A stretch of 38,612 nucleotides of DNA, taken from NCBI GenBank assembly GCA_903877345.1, contig CAIRDL010000120.1:1-38612 (forward strand). Reading direction: 5' to 3'. This DNA comes from an uncultured Oscillochloris sp. GTDB lineage: Bacteria > Chloroflexota > Chloroflexia > Chloroflexales > Chloroflexaceae. Numbering within the stretch: position 1 is the stretch's first letter; every line of letters starts with the position of its first letter. Positions 9,965 through 20,043 of this stretch are shown here, one piece after another. A program made the position numbers and the translations under genes. The notes beneath the pieces were generated by a model, which was not told where the DNA came from, did no database searches, and saw nothing but the letters and a program-made list of their open reading frames with translations.

Positions 9965-12292
9965 CTATGTCCACGCCAGCACGAGCACGTTCAGTGCGCC
10001 GAAGCCCAACCGCCCACCCTGAAAGACGATGTCGTGCAGTTCGTCGTAGAGGCGGCGCGGCAACGGTTCGCTGTGGGCTGCGGTGTTGCGGATTTGGGTG
10101 ATGCGGGTAAGCGTGTGGTCAATCAGGGCGTCGAAGCTGATGACGCGCTCCGGGTCGTTCGGATTGGGCCGGTTGTTCCAGTGCGCGGCGACGTAGGTGT
10201 TGATGCGCGTCCAGTTCCCAGTAGTGTCATCCGTGCGCTTCAGGTAGGGGAGCCTGCCCAGAGTCTGCTTTTTGGGGTTGGTTACCTCGCCTTCCAGACC
10301 AGGACAGGCGAAGATGCGCCGCTTGATCACGATTTCAATAACGCTTGACAGGTGGATCGCCGGCGCGGAGTAGTCGGTCGCACGTACCTTGAAGAGTTGG
10401 TCGGTGAGAAAGATTGCCAGCGCCAGCGATTCCTGCTCCGTTGCGCTGAGTAGATCGAAGGTCGTACGCATCCCCAGCCCACGAACGCGCTCGTGGTAGA
10501 ACGCCAGATCTACGTGCGCCAGATCGGCGAAGCGCCGGGTCAGGTGCTGCACCCGTTCGGCGATAGCGCTCACCCGTTCCTCGCTCGGATCGTCTGCGGT
10601 GCCTTCGCCCAGGATGTGCTCCAGTTCCCGCAGCAGGCTCTCAATGTCACGCGGCGGACGAATGGGCGTGCGCGCCTCAGCCTGCCCGACAATGTGGCAG
10701 AGCCGTTCGTCCTGGCAGCAATGCATGGCGCGGCTCACCAAATCTACCCGCCACGGGCCAAGGTGAGGCTTCGGACAGACCAGGAGGTCGTCAGGACGCC
10801 CGTGAAGCGGCGTCCCCCAACGGTCGCTCAGCGCGCCCTGTTCGGTGACACTCACGCTATCAAGGAAGACCCCCTGACATACCGGCACGACCGGCTCGCG
10901 CAGGTCGGCGTGGGCGTGATCGAGCAACTGCACCAGGGCGCGCTGGATCTCCGCGCTGGGCAGATCGGGGCCGAGGGCGATCACGTCAACGCGCAGCCGT
11001 GGGTCGAGGCTCGGTGCGGCCGCACGCGCTGGTTGGAGGCGTTGTACCAGCGCGGGTACACCATCAGGGAGCGCCGCGTCGTCGCTCTCATCAGCCCGCA
11101 GAAACGCGAACAGCAAGCTGCCCCGTGTCTCTCCGGTTAAGGCTAGGTCGGCCAGCATGCGCTTGACCGGCCCGCTTGGCGCGTGGTTCCGGTCGCGCTC
11201 ACGATAGTATTTGGCATCCCAAATCACGCCGGGTTCGCGCCAGATCATCTGGTTGCTTGCATACACCTCGGTCATGGGTGGATCGCAGCGGCGCAGGTGG
11301 TAGTCTGGCCGTACCCCTGGCACCCGTGCATCCGCTGGCTCCGAACGCCAGACCGTGGGCTGTTCACGAATGCCTTGGTCATGACGGAGTTCGTAGTGGC
11401 GCATGGTGTCGCCCTCGCCCCAACGAAAGCGCAGCACCGCAGGCAGGTGGGTTCCCGTGTCGAGCAACCCGCGTCGGATGAGCAGATCCGCCACCTCGAA
11501 GAGGATCCAGAGTTGGTAGAGGCGATTATCCCGCCGTGGGTCGGCACCGAGCAGATCGGCGGGAGCGTCGGCAGGACGCCGCCGCAGCAGGTCGAGCGCA
11601 CGGTAGCGCCGCCGCCAAGCCAGCAGATCGTCGTAGGCGCTACTGCCGCCAGGTTGACCGCCAGCGGCGACGCGGGCCTCCAGTGCTTCGACTCCGCCAT
11701 GCGCGCCGTCGAGATACGCCTGGGCTGCGGTGCGGATGCCCGCAAATTGGGGGAAGGCCAACGCTCGTTCGCACCGCTCAACAATCACGGTGAGCGGGTG
11801 GCGCAGGCTTTCGGCTCCCAGCGCCACCGTGTCGCTCAGCAGGAGCCGCCGCACCGCGCTGCCATATTCCAACAGCGTTGCGACCGTCAGCAGGTTCGTA
11901 GGCGTGGCAAAGGTGCGGAGCCGTTGGCGGGCATGGACGGTCAGGGGCGGCTCGCCGGGACGCTCGTGCCAACTCGCCTCCAGGGTACGCTCCCAATCTA
12001 TGCGGCCACGCCCCGGTGGCTCTTCGACCACCAAGTGATGCGGCGAGACAAAGCTGAGCCGCCGCACGATGCGCGGCAGGATTTCCTCGAAGAGCGCGGT
12101 GCGAAGAAAGAAGAGCACGGCAAGATCGCGGTACACCTGGAGCGCCGCCGTGGTTTCCTCGCGCATGAAGTTCTGGTGGTCGGTGAAAAATTTGCGGTAT
12201 TCCTCCTCGCTGAAGCGCAGCAGCAAGGCGACCATGCGGGCCTGCATCTGACCGTAGGCCCGCTGCTCAGTTGGGGTAGGTTGGGCGGCCAT
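9965..12292 (-). CDS. McrC-like PD-(D/E)xK nuclease fused to a Cys/His-rich region and a C-terminal HEPN (Rx4H) domain
   Basis: 775 aa. The N-terminal region carries GRGRIDWERTL (McrC/DUF2357-like). Nuclease core is VRPD(330)YHL ... IWD(359)AK(361)YY, followed by VKRMLADLAL (nt 11210-11305). Cys/His cluster CPKPH...HCCQDERLCH at nt 10694-10777. C-terminal helical region ends in TRITQIRNTAAHSEP, where R735-N-T-A-A-H740 is cgcaacaccgcagcccac on the minus strand at 10073-10090. The start ATG is 1 nt from the stop of the upstream AAA+ gene. Confidence 0.75.
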   Translation of the reverse strand: MAAQPTPTEQRAYGQMQARMVALLLRFSEEEYRKFFTDHQNFMREETTAALQVYRDLAVLFFLRTALFEEILPRIVRRLSFVSPHHLVVEEPPGRGRIDWERTLEASWHERPGEPPLTVHARQRLRTFATPTNLLTVATLLEYGSAVRRLLLSDTVALGAESLRHPLTVIVERCERALAFPQFAGIRTAAQAYLDGAHGGVEALEARVAAGGQPGGSSAYDDLLAWRRRYRALDLLRRRPADAPADLLGADPRRDNRLYQLWILFEVADLLIRRGLLDTGTHLPAVLRFRWGEGDTMRHYELRHDQGIREQPTVWRSEPADARVPGVRPDYHLRRCDPPMTEVYASNQMIWREPGVIWDAKYYRERDRNHAPSGPVKRMLADLALTGETRGSLLFAFLRADESDDAALPDGVPALVQRLQPARAAAPSLDPRLRVDVIALGPDLPSAEIQRALVQLLDHAHADLREPVVPVCQGVFLDSVSVTEQGALSDRWGTPLHGRPDDLLVCPKPHLGPWRVDLVSRAMHCCQDERLCHIVGQAEARTPIRPPRDIESLLRELEHILGEGTADDPSEERVSAIAERVQHLTRRFADLAHVDLAFYHERVRGLGMRTTFDLLSATEQESLALAIFLTDQLFKVRATDYSAPAIHLSSVIEIVIKRRIFACPGLEGEVTNPKKQTLGRLPYLKRTDDTTGNWTRINTYVAAHWNNRPNPNDPERVISFDALIDHTLTRITQIRNTAAHSEPLPRRLYDELHDIVFQGGRLGFGALNVLVLAWT

Positions 12293-12293
12293 T

Positions 12294-14390
12294 CTACAGC
12301 CCTTGCTCGCTCACAAAGGCGCTCAGCCGCCGCGCAAACAGCCCATCCGGCGTGATGCCGAGCGGCGCAGGCGGGCCAAAGATCGCCCGCACCTGTAGCT
12401 CCGTCAGCGCCTCGGGGCGATGGGGGTCTACGCTGGATTCGATCAGGCGCAACTGGAGCAGGTGGGCGCTCTGGCGTGGCCCCGAGAGACTGCTGAGGAT
12501 GGTGCTGATGCTGTCGCGGAGCGCCGCGCTATCTTCGGGGTGAGCAATCAGGGCGAGGAGCACGCGCAGTTCGTCACGGGCAAGCACTTGGAGTTGATCC
12601 GCCAAGGTGTCGGCAAGGGCGGCATCGAGGGCGCGTTCCCACGCCATGCCGACCGCTCGACCAGCAAGGAAGTCGCGGTAGCCCGCCTCCGCCTGGGCGG
12701 TGCCAAGCTGTCGGTAGATCCGCACCGCCGCGAAGACGCGCCAGAACTGGTCGCTGGCCGTGCGCGCCGCCGGATCAGCGTCAGCGCCGATGGCGTAGCG
12801 TACCAGGGTGTCATGCTCGGCAGGGTCGGCCCGGCGCACACTGAGCGTCTGTGCCCAGGTGGCGTAGCCGAGGTCAATATCGGCGCTAAACCCCGTCAGG
12901 CCATGCTCCGCCAAGCGACTGAGCGCACCAAACAGCGCGAGCGCCTGTTCCTCAGCGGCGCGCTCACGACCGGGCGGCAGCACATCAATGAAGGTGAAAC
13001 GGCGCTTCAGCGCTTCGCTGATCTGATTGAGGAAGTGCCGGTCAAAGCTGTTGAGTGTCCCAATCAGCCGGAAGTCGTGCGGCAGGCGCACGGTGCGCTC
13101 GCCTTCGTCACTGGGAAAGGTGAGCGTCGGCTGCCGTTGGCCGCCAAGGGTGGTCAGCAACCCGCCGAAGGCGGCATCAACCTGGGCGCGGGTGAACTCG
13201 TCAATCACCAGCCAAAGACCGTGATAGCGGTTCTCCTCACCGTCGGTGGGTTCGCGGCGGGGCAATGCGCTCAGATCGGTCGCGCCGTCGCTATCAAACT
13301 GGTAATTTGCCAACACCGCCCGCGTAAGGCAGCCATACTCCACCCGGTAAACCAGCGTGCTTCCCCGCTCATCGCGCTGGATCTTCGGGGCAATCCCGCC
13401 AATCACATGGCGCACGCCCCAATCCTCGGTAGCCGTGACGACGTCAACTAGATAGCCCTCACGACGCAGGGGTTCCTCCAAGGGAGCCTCGGTCGGCGCG
13501 AGCGTCGGGTCATTCGGCAGCGTCAGCCGCAGCGTGTCCTGATCGTCACGCCAGAGAATGCGCGGGAGGATGCGGGCCAAGTGGGTTTTGCCGGTGCCGG
13601 GCGGGCCGCTGAGAATGACGTGGTGCCCGGCGATCAGGGAGCGGTAGATCCGCAGGATGGTCTCGCGGTCAAGCAGCAACTCGCGCTGAATTTCGGCAAT
13701 CCGTTCCTCCAGCACCGCCGACGGTAGGATGCGCAACGCGGCGTCGGTCAGGGCTGGCAGATCGTGCGGCCCGCTCCGCACCCGATGCAGATGCGCCAGA
13801 AACGTGTTGATCGCGTGCGCCGTCGTGCGGCGGTCGTCAAGCGGTGCAAGTGCCTGTGGGAGCGCTTGCCAAGTGCCATCGGCATTCCGTTGCGCCAGCC
13901 CGGCCTCTGCATACCAAGCGAGCAGTGGCTCGCCCAACGGCCAAGCCTCGGCTGCGTGGGGCAGCCCATCGAAGGGTGCCTCCAGAGCGGGCAAACGGTA
14001 CTCGTCTTCGTCGTTGCTTGGCACCAGCAGCGTCAGCGCACAATAGCGGAGCAACAAATCAAGGCTGGCATCACCGAGATGCGCCCAGCGCCGATAGCAC
14101 CCGTCGTCAAGCGGCTCCAACAGACGGAGGCACAGCAGATCATCCACCAGTTGGGCCGCGTCGAACGGCGCAGCGAGTGGCGCAATGGGCGGCATCACCG
14201 TCCCCAGCACATCGCGGATCGCAGCGGGCGTGTAGCGCTCACCGCTGAGATGGGTGGCTAGTTGCACGTAGGGTCGCAGCGCAACGCCGAGGGTGCGGGG
14301 CAGGGCGGTTGGCAGGGCGTTATCAATGAAGCGCTGCGCGGCGGCGTAGACGCGAACGGCGGCAGGGGTGGTGAGACGGGGCATTGGCAT
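12294..14390 (-). CDS. McrB-like AAA+ GTPase (AAA_5 family) with novel N-terminal (~250 aa) and C-terminal (~230 aa) extensions
   Basis: 698 aa. Walker A SGPPGTGKTH (13584-13607); TATEDWGVRHVIGGIAPK, the counterpart of the McrB YEDF..G..P block; Walker B LWLVIDEFTRAQVDAAFGGLLTTLG (D397/E398 at 13197-13202); RLIGTLNSFDRH with the McrB-type NxxD GTP-specificity motif (13041-13052); ALKRRFTFIDV. Confidence 0.8.
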   Translation of the reverse strand: MPMPRLTTPAAVRVYAAAQRFIDNALPTALPRTLGVALRPYVQLATHLSGERYTPAAIRDVLGTVMPPIAPLAAPFDAAQLVDDLLCLRLLEPLDDGCYRRWAHLGDASLDLLLRYCALTLLVPSNDEDEYRLPALEAPFDGLPHAAEAWPLGEPLLAWYAEAGLAQRNADGTWQALPQALAPLDDRRTTAHAINTFLAHLHRVRSGPHDLPALTDAALRILPSAVLEERIAEIQRELLLDRETILRIYRSLIAGHHVILSGPPGTGKTHLARILPRILWRDDQDTLRLTLPNDPTLAPTEAPLEEPLRREGYLVDVVTATEDWGVRHVIGGIAPKIQRDERGSTLVYRVEYGCLTRAVLANYQFDSDGATDLSALPRREPTDGEENRYHGLWLVIDEFTRAQVDAAFGGLLTTLGGQRQPTLTFPSDEGERTVRLPHDFRLIGTLNSFDRHFLNQISEALKRRFTFIDVLPPGRERAAEEQALALFGALSRLAEHGLTGFSADIDLGYATWAQTLSVRRADPAEHDTLVRYAIGADADPAARTASDQFWRVFAAVRIYRQLGTAQAEAGYRDFLAGRAVGMAWERALDAALADTLADQLQVLARDELRVLLALIAHPEDSAALRDSISTILSSLSGPRQSAHLLQLRLIESSVDPHRPEALTELQVRAIFGPPAPLGITPDGLFARRLSAFVSEQGL

Positions 14391-14506
14391 TCCTCGACTG
14401 GAGCGTAAAGAAGCAAAGAGGGCATTGGCAGTAGCGCAAACCTCACCTGGTCACGCCGAGCGTCCCGGCGGGCAGGATAGATTGCAGTCTCGTCGTCGTA
14501 CGGGCC

Positions 14507-17500
14507 TCAGTTTTCCGCGTCGGTGGGCGTCAATAACTGGCTCAACAGGGCCAACAAATCGCGTAGACGCACCGGCTTGCTAAGATACGCCGTCGCTCCG
14601 GCCTCCAGGCAGCGCGTCCGATCCTCCGGCATCGCCAGGGCCGTGAGGGCTAGGATCGGCACCGTGGCGCCTGTAGGTAGCGCCCGGATACGCCGGATCG
14701 CTTCGAGGCCATCCATGTTCGGCATCTGGATGTCCATCATAATCACGCTGGGCCGCAGCGTCGCGAGCGTGGCTAACGCGCTGGCGGCATCCGGCGCCTC
14801 ATGCACCGTGAAGCGATGGGCCTGAAGGTAGTGCGCAAGCACCTTCCGCCCCACGGCGTCATCGTCAACGAGGAGCAGTGGAGCCACCGGGACGACCAGC
14901 GCCGTCGGCACGGCCACCGGCGTCGGCGGCGCGGTGATCCGCCGTGGGTTGGGAGGTACCGCCTCGGTTGGCTGGTGCCACGGCAACGTCACCGTGAAGT
15001 GACTGCCCTGGCCGGGGGTGCTCAACACGGTGATTTGACCGCCATGCAGTTCGGTCAAGCGCCGCACCAGAGCCAGCCCCAAGCCCGTTCCCGGTTGGCT
15101 GCGTGATAACCGCGAGTCGAGTTGCACGAAGGGTCGGAACAGCTTGGGTAGATCCAGCGCCTCAATCCCAATCCCGGTATCAGCGACCAGAAAGTGGATC
15201 ACCTGCGCCTCAGCGTCACCAGTCACCGTCAGGCTTACCCGGCCCCGTTCGGGGGTGAACTTCACGGCGTTGGCAAGCAGATTTACAAGGATTTGGGTGA
15301 AGCGGCGCTCGTCGGCGAGCAGTGTCGTCACCGTTGCGTCCAGCGACAGCGTTGTCCAGATTTGCTTAGCCACCGCCTGTGGCCGCACCAAATCCAGGCT
15401 CTGTTGACAGACTTGGGCCACATCAAGCGCCGTCAGTGCCAACACCTCTTGCTCAGCCTCGATTTTCGAGAGGTCGAGAATGTCGCTGATCAGCGCCAAA
15501 AGATGCATACCGCTTTGCTCAACTTGCTTCAGCGCCGCATCTTGCTGCGAGTTGAGCGCGCCAAGGACGGTGGTTTGGAGCAACTCGACATTCCCCAAGA
15601 TAGCGTTGAGCGGCGTACGCAGTTCGTGGCTCATCGCAGCCAAGAAGGCGGACTTGGCCTGATCCGCCACCTCGGCGACCTCCTTCGCCCGCAGCAACTC
15701 TTGGGCGGCCAACCAGCGCTCGGTACTATCGTGAATGACCACCATCCCTGCGATCACCGCGCCGTCGCCCGCCCGCACCGGCAGCACCTGCGCGTCATAG
15801 CGCCGCGCTTGCACGACCGTCTCAAAGGCACCAGTTTCGCCCGCAAGGGCCGCGTTGCAGTACGGTTCGAGCAGCGCCACCATTTCCGGGAACAGCCCCG
15901 ACGTGCGGATCGTCTGGGCCGTCAGATCTCCAGGTTGCTGCCGAAGTTGCCCGAGCGCCTGCCCGCCAGCGACGAGGCAGCGCAACTCGCGATCAAAGAG
16001 TACGACCGCACCATTGGGAAACTGCTCAACCAAGGTGCGATAGCGCGCTTCGCTGGCCCGCAAGGCTTCCTCCATCCGCGTGCGTTCGCTGACGTCACGC
16101 AGAAACGCCTGGAGCACATGGGCACCGTCGCGGGCGACCCGGCGGGAACTTACATTGACCACCACCGTCGAGCCGTCTGGGCGGGGGATCATGACATCAA
16201 ACATGAGTGCGCCCGCAGCGACGATCTGCGCGTTCCGCGCCCCAAGTTCTGCGGGCATTTCACCCGTGAGCGTGGTGATGTTCATCCCGACCAAAGTTTC
16301 CTGCGTGCGTTTGAAGATCGCACATGCCTGCGGATTCACATCAAGGACAATGCCGTCAAGGCTCGAAATGACCAGCCCGTCGTTGCAGTGTTCGACAATC
16401 GAGCGGTAGCGGGCCTCGCTGGCGTGAACCGCCTGGGTCAGCCGGTGCCGCTCTGTCACATCGCGCACGATAATCAGCGCCTCGTCAGGGGCGCTGCGGG
16501 TCAGGCGACCCTCATGGACATACACCTGTCCACGCACCTCGAAACTCTGCTCGACCGTCACTACGCCACCCTCCTGTAGCACGGTGGGCATGGCGGTCTC
16601 AACCGCTTGGGCCGTTCCCGCGTCAATCCATTGGGTCAGCGGGGTTCCATTCACATGCACGGGCGCTGCGGGCAACTGGGCTGGATTGGGGTGGTGCAGA
16701 CCCCGAATCAGCCCGTCGGCACCGAGCCGAAAGAGCATGTCGGGCATAGCACTGACCAGCGCCCGATTGGTTTCAACACTGCGCTGCCAATATTCTAGCT
16801 GCCGCGTGTGTGTGATGGCTAAGGCAAGAACCGCTGCGAAATCTTGGGCGATTTGAATAGCCTTTCCACCTAAAAGGCTCGAACGGTCACTCAGGATGAC
16901 CAACGCGCCGACCTGGTTCTCCTGTGCGCTGATCGGAAGTCTGAGCAGATACCGCCCGTCCGGCGGCGCACCGGCGGCAAGCTGCGGGTTGGTGGCGAGC
17001 TTGGCGCTGATCAGTGCCGTGGCGGGGCTGGTTGGGGCGAGGAACTGGGCGAACCACGTCTGCGTGTCTGCCGTTGCATTGGTGGCGAGAAGGCGCGGAC
17101 TGGCGTCGGGTCGCCCTTGTTCGAGGATCCAGACCTGTACCGGGCCAAGGGCTTCCAGGGTGGTGCGCAGCCCCGTTGCAGCGACCGTCGCCAAATCAGC
17201 GTTGTCCAGCGCTTGGGCAAAGAGTGCCCGCAGCGCCTGTTGACGCCGCTGCTCGACCTGATGTAATTGGCTGAGCCGGTTGACCAAACCGGCAAGGAGT
17301 ACGGCATCAAGGCCGAGCAAGCCCAAGGACGGGAAGCTGAGGGGCGCGGCGAGCAGCCGACCAGCGGCGAGACCGACAAGCCCAATGCTCAGGATGGTCG
17401 TGGGCAGTTTTGGGACGAGCGTCGCACCCACCGCCACACTGACGAGGAGGCAGACGCGCAGCACATCGCCGCTAAGCGCCGACAGGACGCTATTCGTCAC

Positions 17501-17563
17501 CAGGGCGACCGCCCAGAGGATCTGCAGTGGCGGTGCTGACCGGAGTGCGAGGAAATGCTTCAT
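14507..17563 (-). CDS. membrane-anchored hybrid sensor histidine kinase (TM-GAF-PAS-PAS-PAS-HisKA-HATPase-REC)
   Basis: H-box [14 protein letters not shown]-box [13 protein letters not shown]-boxes ADTGIGI and [13 protein letters not shown]-terminal receiver LLLVDDD...[12 protein letters not shown]...LSKP. Start set at ATG 17563 (MKHFLAL), 14 nt after the upstream stop; the track start 17617 would overlap the upstream gene. Confidence 0.85.
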
Positions 17564-17577
17564 CCTACCATCCAAAC

Positions 17578-20043
17578 TCACCCCGCGCTCGGCAAAGTCG
17601 GAGCCTTGCGCCGCCAATGCTCGATCTGCTCAACCAACTTGCGGAGACTCACTGGCTTGCTGAGATAGTCGTTTGCGCCCGCCGCCAAACAGCGCTCACG
17701 GTCGCCGCTCATCGCTAGGGCCGTCAGCGCGACCACCGGGATGACGGCGCTGCCAGCCTTCGCCCGGATGCGGCGGGTTGCCTCCAAGCCATCCAGCACC
17801 GGCATTTGGATGTCCATCAAAATCAGATCGGGCTGCCACTCTTCAGCCATACTCACCGCCTCCGCCCCGTTGCGCGCCACCAACACCCGATAGCCGTGCG
17901 CCTCAAGGTACTGGGTGGTCGTGCGTAAAACGACCTCGCTATCCTCGGCCAACAGCAGCACCGGACGCTCTTGCTCGTCTGGGCGAACGTGGAACTGCCG
18001 CTCTGGCGCGGGTTCGGGCGCAGGCTTGGGGGTCTGGTTTTGCCAAGGCAGCGAAACGGTGAAACTGCTGCCCACGCCGAGCGTACTCGTCACCTTCACC
18101 GCGCCGCCGTGTAGGTCGGCCAAACGCGAGACAAGGGCCAGCCCCAGCCCCGTACCCTCGTGGCGGCGGCTCAGGCAACTGTCGAGTTGCACAAATGGCT
18201 TAAACAGGCGCGGAATGTCCGCCGCAGCGATGCCGATGCCGGTGTCGGCAACCGTAAAATGGATGACCTCCGCCTCCGGGTCGCCGCGCACCTCAAGGTT
18301 GACACTGCCGCCTTGGGCGGTGAATTTCACCGCGTTGGAGAGCAGGTTGACCAAGATTTGTTTGAGGCGGCGCGGGTCAGCGGCGACCATCTCGACGAGC
18401 GGGTCAATAGTGCTGATCACGCGCAACCGTTTCGTCTGGGCGATCTGGCGCACCATGCGTAGACTGGCCGCGCAGATCTCTTCGACCTCCAACGGCTCAA
18501 TGGCAAGCTCGACTTTGCCCGCCTCAATTTTGGTCAAGTCGAGGATGTCGTTGATCAGCGCCAACAGATGCTGCCCGCTCTCCGCAATCATCTCCAGCGA
18601 CTGAGTCTGGCGCTCGTTTAACGCACCATACACGCCCTCGACGGTCGATTCCGACAAGGTCAGGATGGCATTGAGTGGCGTGCGTAATTCGTGCGACATA
18701 TTCGCCAAAAACTCATCCTTGAGCCGCGCCGCCCGCTCGAGCTGACTGTTGGCCGCACTCAGCGCGGCGGTACGTTCCGCCACGCGGCGCTCCAAGTTCT
18801 CGTTTGTCTGGCGGAGCAGCGCCTCGGCCTGTTTGCGCTCGGTAATTTCTTGAAAAAAAACCGTCACGCCTTTGGTCGCCGGGTAAATATGGCGCTCGAA
18901 CCAGCGGTTACTCGCATGATCATGCTCCTCAATCGTGACGGTAGTCTGGCGGGCAAGCACCTGACGGCAGGCTTGATGGAAGAGTTGGCCGAACCTTGCA
19001 GTGGGCTCATTGCCAATGCTCGTGCCGATCAGCGCCTCGGCGTCGCACCCGAGGAGTTGCGCCGCCCGTGGATTGACTCGGAGATAGCGCCAGTTAGCGT
19101 CAAGGGCCACAAAGCCCTCGGTGAGGCGGTTCAAGATCGCGTCCGTCTCACCACGCGCTTGCTCGGCAGCGGTACGCGAATTGATGGCGAAAGCTAACAG
19201 GCGTTCAAGCTCCTCGTTCGTCTGTTGTAACAACTGCTCGGCGGTGTGCTGCTCGGTAATATCTTCAGCCAAACCGACGACCCGGTACGGTGTGCCACGC
19301 GCATCATGCACCGGAAAAGCCCGGTCACGAATCCAGCGCATCGTCTGATCGGGCCGCATGATCCGGTAGACCACCTCGGTCATTTCGCCACACGTCTGCC
19401 GCTCCAACGCCTCCCGCGTTACCTCTTGGTCGTCCGGGTGAATAGGCATAACGAAAGATTGGGCATCGGCATAAAGGCTTTCGCGACTGTGTTGCCAGAT
19501 CTGCTCGTAGCTTGGACTCACGTAGAGTACTTGGTGGGTCTGGAGATCAAAGATATAAAAGACTTCGCTGATATGTTCGGTAAGCTGACGAAACCGCTCT
19601 TCGCTTGTGTGTAATTGCTGCTCAGTCGCGGCGCGTTGCTCCGTTTGGCGCTCGGCCTCGACAGGGTAAATCAGCGCCGTGGTGCCGTAGCCTGCCGTCG
19701 TGGGCCACGGTGTGAGCGTGAGCGTGAGGGGCAGGCGCGCACCATCACGGTGGAGGCCCAACAGGTGGATGCCTGGTTCGGGGGCGGCGAGGGGGTTGCC
19801 AGTCTGCGCTAAGGTGAGGGACTGGTGCAACTGGGCGGGCAGCAGCATCGTGAAGGGTCGGCCCAAAACCTCGGCGGTTGGGTAGCCAAAGAGTCGGGTT
19901 GCAGCGGCGTTCCACGTGCAGATCATGCCGTCCGGGTCAACCGAAACTACCGCAGCAGTGGCCGACGCCGCGACCGCAGCAAGCAGCGCGGCGAAGCTCG
20001 GTTCGGACGACGGACTCGCGGACGGAGCGGCGAGAGGCTTCAT
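17578..20043 (-). CDS. soluble hybrid sensor histidine kinase (PAS x3-4, HisKA, HATPase, REC)
   Basis: H-box [44 protein letters not shown], receiver LLLAEDSE...[12 protein letters not shown]...LSKP. Confidence 0.85.

Follow-up and report, generated by a model that had tools for sequence, protein, structure and literature searches.

A McrBC-type operon of a Chloroflexia bacterium whose McrC-like protein ends in a probable HEPN ribonuclease domain

The analysed DNA (the window) is a stretch of 38,612 nucleotides (nt) from contig CAIRDL010000120.1 of an uncultured Oscillochloris sp. Positions 9965-14390 of this window, on the minus strand, are a two-gene Type IV (McrBC-type) restriction operon of a Chloroflexia bacterium. 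The operon is assigned to this type because one gene product has the fold and motif of McrC and a McrB-like GTPase gene lies directly upstream on the same strand. The McrC-like protein ends in an all-helical module which is very probably homologous to HEPN domains. That this module is a HEPN tail with catalytic competence, which is a fuller statement, is held to be probable. The predicted HEPN active-site residues are intact in the sequence, namely R735, N736 and H740 together with E653 on the preceding core helix. A single protein would thus probably hold both a DNA-cutting and an RNA-cutting head. The features of the McrC-like gene are as follows (aa, amino acids).

9965..12292, minus strand: McrC-like gene, 775 aa plus stop codon (from the list of open reading frames (ORFs), the AlphaFold2 (AF2) model and Foldseek)
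9968..10648, minus strand: all-helical HEPN-like module, aa ~549-775 (~225 aa), from AF2, hhalign, weak Pfam matches and Foldseek
10073..10090, minus strand: Rx4H motif R735-N736-T737-A738-A739-H740, read directly, with the predicted catalytic Arg, Asn and His
10316..10375, minus strand: first conserved HEPN helix, D640-Y-S-A-P-A-I-H647...E653-x3-K657-R-R659, with the candidate Ex3[KR] second motif
10694..10879, minus strand: Cys/His-rich linker, aa 472-533, with C472, C506-P-K-P-H510, H524-C525-C526 and C532-H533
10898..12292, minus strand: McrC core, aa 1 to ~465, with a PD-(D/E)xK nuclease fold behind an N-terminal helical/beta region (Foldseek and AF2 secondary structure)
11204..11311, minus strand: PD-(D/E)xK motifs R-P329-D330-YHL ... 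IW-D359-A-K361-Y-Y (alignment conservation)

The C-terminal helical module

A homology search with the 775-aa protein retrieved 209 relatives, and 64 full-length homologues were aligned, down to 43% identity and with a mean column identity of 51%. The initial annotation of this DNA reported an R-N-T-A-A-H motif near the C terminus, and the motif was read again directly: the reverse complement of 10073-10090 gives cgc aac acc gca gcc cac, which in the reading frame of the 775-aa ORF encodes R735 to H740. The C-terminal end of the ORF reads ...ITQIRNTAAHSEP...LAWT before the stop codon, and the final residues ahead of the stop are ...ITQIRNTAAHSEPLPRRLYDELHDIVFQGGRLGFGALNVLVLAWT. R735, N736, A738, A739 and H740 are invariant in the 64 homologues, RNxAAH is present in all 58 genome loci that cover the motif, and residues 735-740 are the densest invariant six-residue stretch of the whole protein. 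The conservation of the arginine and the histidine, on which the initial annotation had made its HEPN reading depend, is therefore complete. An RN...H motif alone is weak evidence, because it occurs in 5.7% of composition-matched shuffles of the 775-aa protein and because the protein contains 11 matches to Rx4-6H; it is the strict conservation that lifts RNxAAH above chance.

The C terminus had been judged helical by eye. The AF2 model of aa 555-775 agrees with this, as it consists of helices only (mean predicted local distance difference test score (pLDDT) 92.1, predicted template modelling score (pTM) 0.89). The extent first given for the module, about 175 aa from aa 600 (10495), is too short. 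Two conserved helices of the helical module precede aa 600, and it starts at aa ~549, near window position 10648, and is ~225 aa in length.

The first conserved helix of the HEPN core carries E653, which is invariant both in the 64 homologues and in the superfamily-level alignment (A4). D640, S642, A643, I646, H647 and R659 are conserved in at least 90% of the 64 homologues. Position +4 of E653 is K657 in this protein (E653-I-V-I-K657) and is occupied by Gln, Lys and Arg in 28, 25 and 6 of the 64 sequences, respectively, so that only the Glu is strict. An insert of about 60 residues (aa ~660-719) separates the two core motifs.

Relationship to the HEPN superfamily

HEPN domains are described as helical bundles with an Rx4-6H motif, in which a polar residue follows the Arg, and often with a second acidic residue in Ex3[KR]; the HHpred probabilities reported for members are typically 75-98% (PMC3710099). 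Both motifs of this clan (CL0291) are present in the module, the first as R735-N-T-A-A-H740, with Asn as the polar residue, and the upstream acidic residue as E653.

The 32 members of an alignment of the C-terminal family (A2) were scanned individually against Pfam. The families matched by more than one member were RiboL-PSP-HEPN (7 members), DUF4145 (5 members, best 1.4e-4), Swt1-HEPN (5 members) and Tom37 (4 members). The HEPN-clan matches cover the motif region and are all below threshold. An exhaustive hidden Markov model search of 1.8 billion proteins with A2 found 164 representatives at E ≤ 1e-3. Of the distant relatives of the domain, nearly all have RNxxAH close to their C-terminal end, and over the corresponding region they give weak Pfam matches to RiboL-PSP, Swt1, Csm6_HEPN, Hypoth_Ymh, HEPN (PF05168) and RnlA-toxin_DBD.

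Some of the distant relatives are proteins of ~450 aa with two RNxxAH domains, of which the N-terminal one is a HEPN domain of the DUF4145/Swt1 type. In one of them (P0307) the N-terminal domain scores 23.7 bits, the DUF4145 cut-off being 23.1. The near-threshold DUF4145/Swt1 matches were considered as direct hits on the domain under study and were rejected, as they are located in the N-terminal domain of the tandem proteins. A Pfam scan of ten short distant relatives for the source of the DUF4145 matches was mostly empty. Since the matches fall in the N-terminal domains, these domains were taken as an independent HEPN template.

An alignment of eleven DUF4145-type N-terminal domains was used as the template for hhalign in local mode. 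It was matched by A2 with a probability (Prob) of 79% (E 1.6e-5, 95 columns) and by A4 with a Prob of 95% (E 2.8e-8, 113 columns). In both runs the DYS...E helix and the RNxAAH helix are in register with their counterparts in the template. The profile similarity to an established HEPN family thus lies within the HHpred range of 75-98% published for the superfamily (PMC3710099). Controls, consisting of reversed alignments and of three other segments of the same protein, gave a Prob of 0.3% at most. When the query was cut before RNxAAH, the DYS...E helix still paired with its counterpart (P 0.011 for A2 and 5e-4 for A4).

Comparison of the domain model with the PDB by Foldseek placed the HEPN RNase RnlA at the top (6y2r_B, prob 0.93, template modelling (TM) score 0.43), followed by another RnlA entry and LsoA (4i8o, 5hy3); Csm6 and Csx1-Crn2 appear further down. 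A PHROGs search with A4 gave isolated weak matches only; an 'abortive infection resistance protein' family is among the families matched. The HEPN reading of the initial annotation, which was to be given up if no HEPN-clan hit appeared, is supported by the recurrent, sub-threshold matches to RiboL-PSP-HEPN, DUF4145 and Swt1-HEPN, by the hhalign results and by RnlA as the top fold match.

Several results, besides the frequency of RN...H in shuffled sequences, weigh against a HEPN assignment. The 775-aa protein and the segment reported earlier matched nothing in Pfam, NCBIfam and PADLOC at E ≤ 10 except for a chance-level Tom37 match, and no library model is over threshold on the window protein. 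The C-terminal domains of the template proteins are distant relatives of the query, and the link of the template to Pfam HEPN runs through one borderline call, that of P0307. The HEPN matches of Foldseek are non-significant (E 0.3-8, TM ≤ 0.43), and a Foldseek search of the domain model against viral predicted structures gave nothing above noise. Sequence profile searches of the PDB with A2 and A4 returned chance matches only (diphosphoinositol phosphatase, TFIIS). Aligned by hhalign to the single E. coli RnlA sequence, A2 and A4 gave a non-significant Prob of 0.1-0.2%; the best path, likewise non-significant, sets E653-x3-K657 on the E-x3-K of RnlA (ELRTIEGVLK). A homology search with the RnlA HEPN domain for a family profile found 3 close sequences only.

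The McrC-like protein and its DNase core

The 775-aa ORF is, on the evidence of its predicted structure, a McrC homologue. The AF2 model of the full-length protein, built on the 64-sequence alignment, has a pLDDT of 83. The top three Foldseek matches of this model in the PDB are all McrC chains with prob 1.00, namely 6hz4_M (E 4.6e-7), 6ut6_G (E 9.1e-6) and 6ut7_G (E 2.3e-5), and the alignments to these chains cover about 430-450 columns. P329, A360 and Y362 of the nuclease motifs are invariant in the 64 homologues, and D330, D359 and K361 are conserved in at least 90% of them. The nuclease motif reads PD..DAKY in 57 of 59 loci. Curated McrC and DUF2357 models of Pfam, NCBIfam and PADLOC did not match the 775-aa protein at E ≤ 10, and one homologue (P0113) carries the name 'DUF2357 domain-containing' from its source. 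Since these models do not match and the divergence is large, membership in McrC rests on fold, motif and gene context. The McrC-like label of the initial annotation stands, given the McrC chains at the top of the Foldseek list, the conserved PD...DAKY and the McrB-like gene upstream.

Both nuclease motifs, PD-(D/E)xK and the HEPN Rx4H/E, are under strict purifying selection in the family. One locus, from the Chloroflexaceae metagenome-assembled genome F17_56 (L032), reads WGAAF at the position of WDAKY, so that its DNase motif is degenerate, and its RNRAAH is intact. Its motif regions are as follows.

L032:3065-3178 and L032:4133-4351: degenerate PD-(D/E)xK motif and RNRAAH of the F17_56 locus

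The retention of RNRAAH despite the degenerate DNase indicates that the HEPN motif is selected independently of the DNase, and HEPN may, from these motifs, be perhaps the sole working nuclease at that locus.

The linker between the DNase and HEPN modules (aa ~470-535) is probably a zinc-binding ribbon, as suggested by its conserved Cys and His residues. C472, C506, P507, H510, C525 and C532 are invariant in the 64 homologues, and C526 is conserved in at least 90% of them. The AF2 model has a beta hairpin at aa 503-520.

The McrB-like gene

The first gene of the pair encodes a McrB-like AAA+ GTPase. The features of this gene are listed below; the NxxD type and the McrB motifs are used as defined in PMC11090510.

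12294..14390, minus strand: McrB-like AAA+ GTPase gene, 698 aa, first of the pair (Pfam AAA_5, NCBIfam McrB)
13584-13607, minus strand: Walker A motif GPPGTGKT of the McrB-like protein
13185-13211, minus strand: Walker B motif LVIDEFTRA of the McrB-like protein
13038-13061, minus strand: McrB signature GTLNSFDR, of the canonical NxxD type

Pfam AAA_5 matches the protein at 5.4e-11. The match to NCBIfam McrB (NF008457), at 2.2e-9, is far under the equivalog cut-off of that model. The N-terminal ~230 aa, presumed to be the DNA-recognition part, have no recognisable domain, and no coiled-coil family was detected in the protein by the Pfam scan. The gap between the stop codon of the mcrB-like gene and the ATG of the McrC-like gene on the same strand is 1 nt. 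A McrB-like gene is directly upstream and co-directional in 37 of the 41 related loci with enough upstream sequence. In the loci L034, L035, L048 and L059, tblastn detects no McrB-like gene immediately ahead of the McrC-HEPN gene; the ORF at this place in L048 runs on the opposite strand.

The G+C content of the McrBC genes is 0.64-0.67, slightly above the 0.60-0.63 of the flanks (window 10000-15000). Between 8500 and 15000, Rfam and searches for promoters and terminators gave neither an RNA element nor a notable signal that overlaps the McrC-HEPN region.

Proposed mechanism and alternative explanations

HEPN RNases generally need two Rx4-6H motifs joined by dimerisation, and the assembly of two McrB6-McrC complexes on target DNA brings about dimerisation of McrC. 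These two properties are the grounds for the model regarded as most likely, that of an assembly-switched RNase. In this model McrC would have three parts: a McrB-binding and PD-(D/E)xK DNase core, the Cys/His linker, and the ~225-aa HEPN tail, which from its family would be a metal-independent endoribonuclease. Recognition of foreign or modified DNA, with GTP-driven assembly, would lead to DNA cleavage. Dimerisation of McrC by two McrB6-McrC complexes on the target DNA would bring two HEPN tails together and lead to RNA cleavage. The RNA target could be phage transcripts, or else host RNA with dormancy or abortive infection as the outcome. This account of a single Type IV enzyme, in which DNA-sensing dimerisation forms a composite HEPN RNase site and the invader DNA is cut while RNA is degraded as an abortive-infection back-up, is put forward tentatively, as a possibility.

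McrBC is a textbook modification-dependent restriction enzyme and is regarded as a pure DNase. A lineage whose apparently active McrC also bears a strictly conserved HEPN RNase motif would unite, compactly and in nature, restriction of DNA and a possibly suicidal defence at the RNA level within one polypeptide. McrC forms dimers only on assembly, and HEPN requires dimerisation, so DNA recognition may be what licenses the RNase.

In the window and in the two related neighbourhoods inspected, the McrC-like gene is followed by no small co-directional (antitoxin-like) gene. Control of the HEPN domain is therefore probably intramolecular or assembly-dependent.

It is possible, if rather doubtful, that the domain is an active RNase regulated apart from DNA recognition by McrBC. 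It would then be a toxin that is checked by the McrB/McrC core and freed by phage inhibition, similar to the release of PrrC from EcoprrI, and this would differ from the assembly-switched model in the trigger only. Anantharaman et al. propose such PrrC-like logic for HEPN domains linked to restriction-modification (R-M) systems (PMC3710099), and it agrees with the lack of a separate antitoxin gene in the neighbourhoods mentioned above. However, PrrC is a separate polypeptide, whereas the domain described here is covalently fused to the nuclease subunit.

A HEPN fold that does not cut RNA is an unlikely explanation of the tail. The module would in that case bind nucleic acid or dimerise, and would position or regulate the McrC DNase, on the model of MtlR or of the HEPN domains fused to nucleotidyltransferases. 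From general knowledge of McrBC, McrC must dimerise for double-strand cleavage, and an extra dimerisation domain would be useful to it. HEPN domains without catalytic roles do exist, but they characteristically lose Rx4-6H (PMC3710099). Here, in contrast, R, N and H as well as E653 are invariant, and the locus with the degenerate DNase retains RNRAAH.

It is improbable that the module is a lineage-specific helical domain with a fortuitous RNxAAH signature and no relation to HEPN: the sub-threshold library matches, the Foldseek E-values of 0.3 and above, the chance frequency of RN...H and the small size of the family would agree with this, but the weak matches return to various HEPN-clan families and to hardly anything besides, two helices align in register with a Prob far from that of the controls, the top fold matches are HEPN RNases, and an acidic residue with a basic residue at +4, followed by R-N-x3-H, is the published HEPN signature (PMC3710099).

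Comparison with known systems

The pair resembles McrBC of E. coli and Thermococcus in the order mcrB-then-mcrC, in the GTPase with Walker A, Walker B and NxxD motifs, in the PD...D-A-K motif of McrC and in the best structural matches. It differs in the length of McrC, which is 775 aa here and about 340-415 aa in the matched McrC chains, and in the extra Cys/His linker and HEPN-like tail.

Earlier work describes HEPN (DUF4145) domains in fusions with restriction endonucleases and also places DUF4145 in McrB/C operons (PMC3710099). The module shares with these domains R-N-x-x-A-H and the upstream Glu, and its partner, as in those fusions, is the restriction subunit that cuts DNA. Unlike DUF4145, it is about twice as long, with extra N-terminal helices and the ~60-residue insert between the motifs. 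The fusion partner here is McrC, which is not mentioned in PMC3710099.

RnlA and LsoA (RNase LS) provide the best PDB fold match, and weak RnlA-toxin_DBD matches occur in distant relatives. RnlA, however, is a stand-alone toxin with RnlB as its antitoxin, whereas the present domain is fused to a DNase and no antitoxin gene is seen.

CoCoNuT systems combine McrB and McrC homologues, some of the latter with zinc ribbons, with HEPN RNases, and RNA is their predicted target (Bell et al. 2024, PMC11090510). The candidate ribbon in the linker of the McrC-like protein recalls the zinc ribbons reported on some CoCoNuT McrC homologues. Assignment to CoCoNuT was considered and rejected, as the McrB signature is of the NxxD type (GTLNSFDR) and no coiled-coil family was detected, whereas McrB of CoCoNuT has a shortened NxD motif and coiled coils. 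HEPN is on the separate protein CnuE in CoCoNuT but is fused to McrC here. The CoCoNuT types that bear HEPN (II and III-A) have inactivated or lost the nuclease of McrC, while the PD-(D/E)xK motif of the present protein is intact.

Bell et al. 2024 (PMC11090510) also noted, and did not analyse, a 'DISARM-like-associated' NxxD branch of McrBC. The neighbourhoods of 20 of the 41 related loci match this branch and fit the published association; the pair in the window itself differs in lacking those neighbour genes. HEPN fused to McrC is not described by Bell et al. 2024 (PMC11090510), and the terms 'HEPN' and 'McrC' are absent from the available passages of the ARMADA preprint (bioRxiv 10.1101/2025.09.15.676423). 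In full-text searches on McrC or McrBC together with HEPN, no account of a HEPN domain fused to an apparently active McrC came up. This fusion is undescribed in the literature found, the theme of HEPN-nuclease fusions being known, and in principle it would be unsurprising to specialists in defence-system genomics.

Distribution and gene neighbourhood

The full-length family is nearly confined to the class Chloroflexia and occurs in the genera Oscillochloris, Chloroploca, Viridilinea, Kouleothrix, Roseiflexus, Herpetosiphon and Kallotenue. About 200 Chloroflexota proteins of the family are labelled hypothetical, and the domain is missed by Pfam, NCBIfam and PADLOC. Divergent full-length McrC-HEPN relatives match the full-length profile at E 1e-81 to 1e-210 and carry the motif RNxLAH. 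One of them is from a species of Dictyobacter, which we take to belong to the Chloroflexota. Several genomes have two to four divergent paralogous McrC-HEPN genes, as in Oscillochloris sp. ZM17-4 (L007/L029), Chloroflexales ZM16-3 (L016/L024) and Candidatus Chloroploca mongolica (L045/L052/L060/L061).

In the 20 loci mentioned above, an SNF2/BrxHII-like helicase, a PglX/MmeI-type methyltransferase and/or a YprA-DUF1998 helicase is encoded within 10 kb of the pair. Loci of Kallotenue and Herpetosiphon are among these 20. Such neighbourhoods are seen at L001:1-5836 and at L003:1-4624 and 10522-15609. The gene set of helicase, methyltransferase and YprA-DUF1998 helicase is now named ARMADA, according to the available part of the preprint (bioRxiv 10.1101/2025.09.15.676423). 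Where it stands beside ARMADA genes, the McrB/McrC-HEPN pair might be the effector arm of ARMADA. The window contains none of these genes; the neighbours of its pair encode DUF3048, Golvesin_C and YkuD proteins and two hybrid PAS sensor kinases. The kinase genes lie just upstream of the pair and overlap by 40 nt; nothing was seen that links them to it.

14507-17617, minus strand: hybrid sensor kinase (PAS-HisKA-HATPase-receiver)
17578-20043, minus strand: hybrid sensor kinase (PAS-HisKA-HATPase-receiver)

The distant relatives of the C-terminal domain include further architectures. R-M-associated HEPN domains do not fuse to methylases according to Anantharaman et al. 2013 (PMC3710099). A metagenomic protein of 925 aa (P0208) looks like an exception to this rule, judging by its domain composition: it combines in one chain an N6/N4 DNA methylase, a zinc ribbon and a distant relative of the HEPN-like domain, whose RNRAAH lies at residue 892. 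The uncharacterised NCBIfam family HP0729_fam is matched by 9 of the 21 members of A4 (best 9e-12). These nine are presumed to be the ~450-aa proteins with two RNxxAH domains (P0221, P0224, P0307 and similar), in which case HP0729_fam may be a tandem-HEPN family. The HP0729 family is among the distant relatives that could gain a HEPN-like annotation. The same C-terminal domain is also borne by two Sel1-repeat proteins (P0236, P0259).

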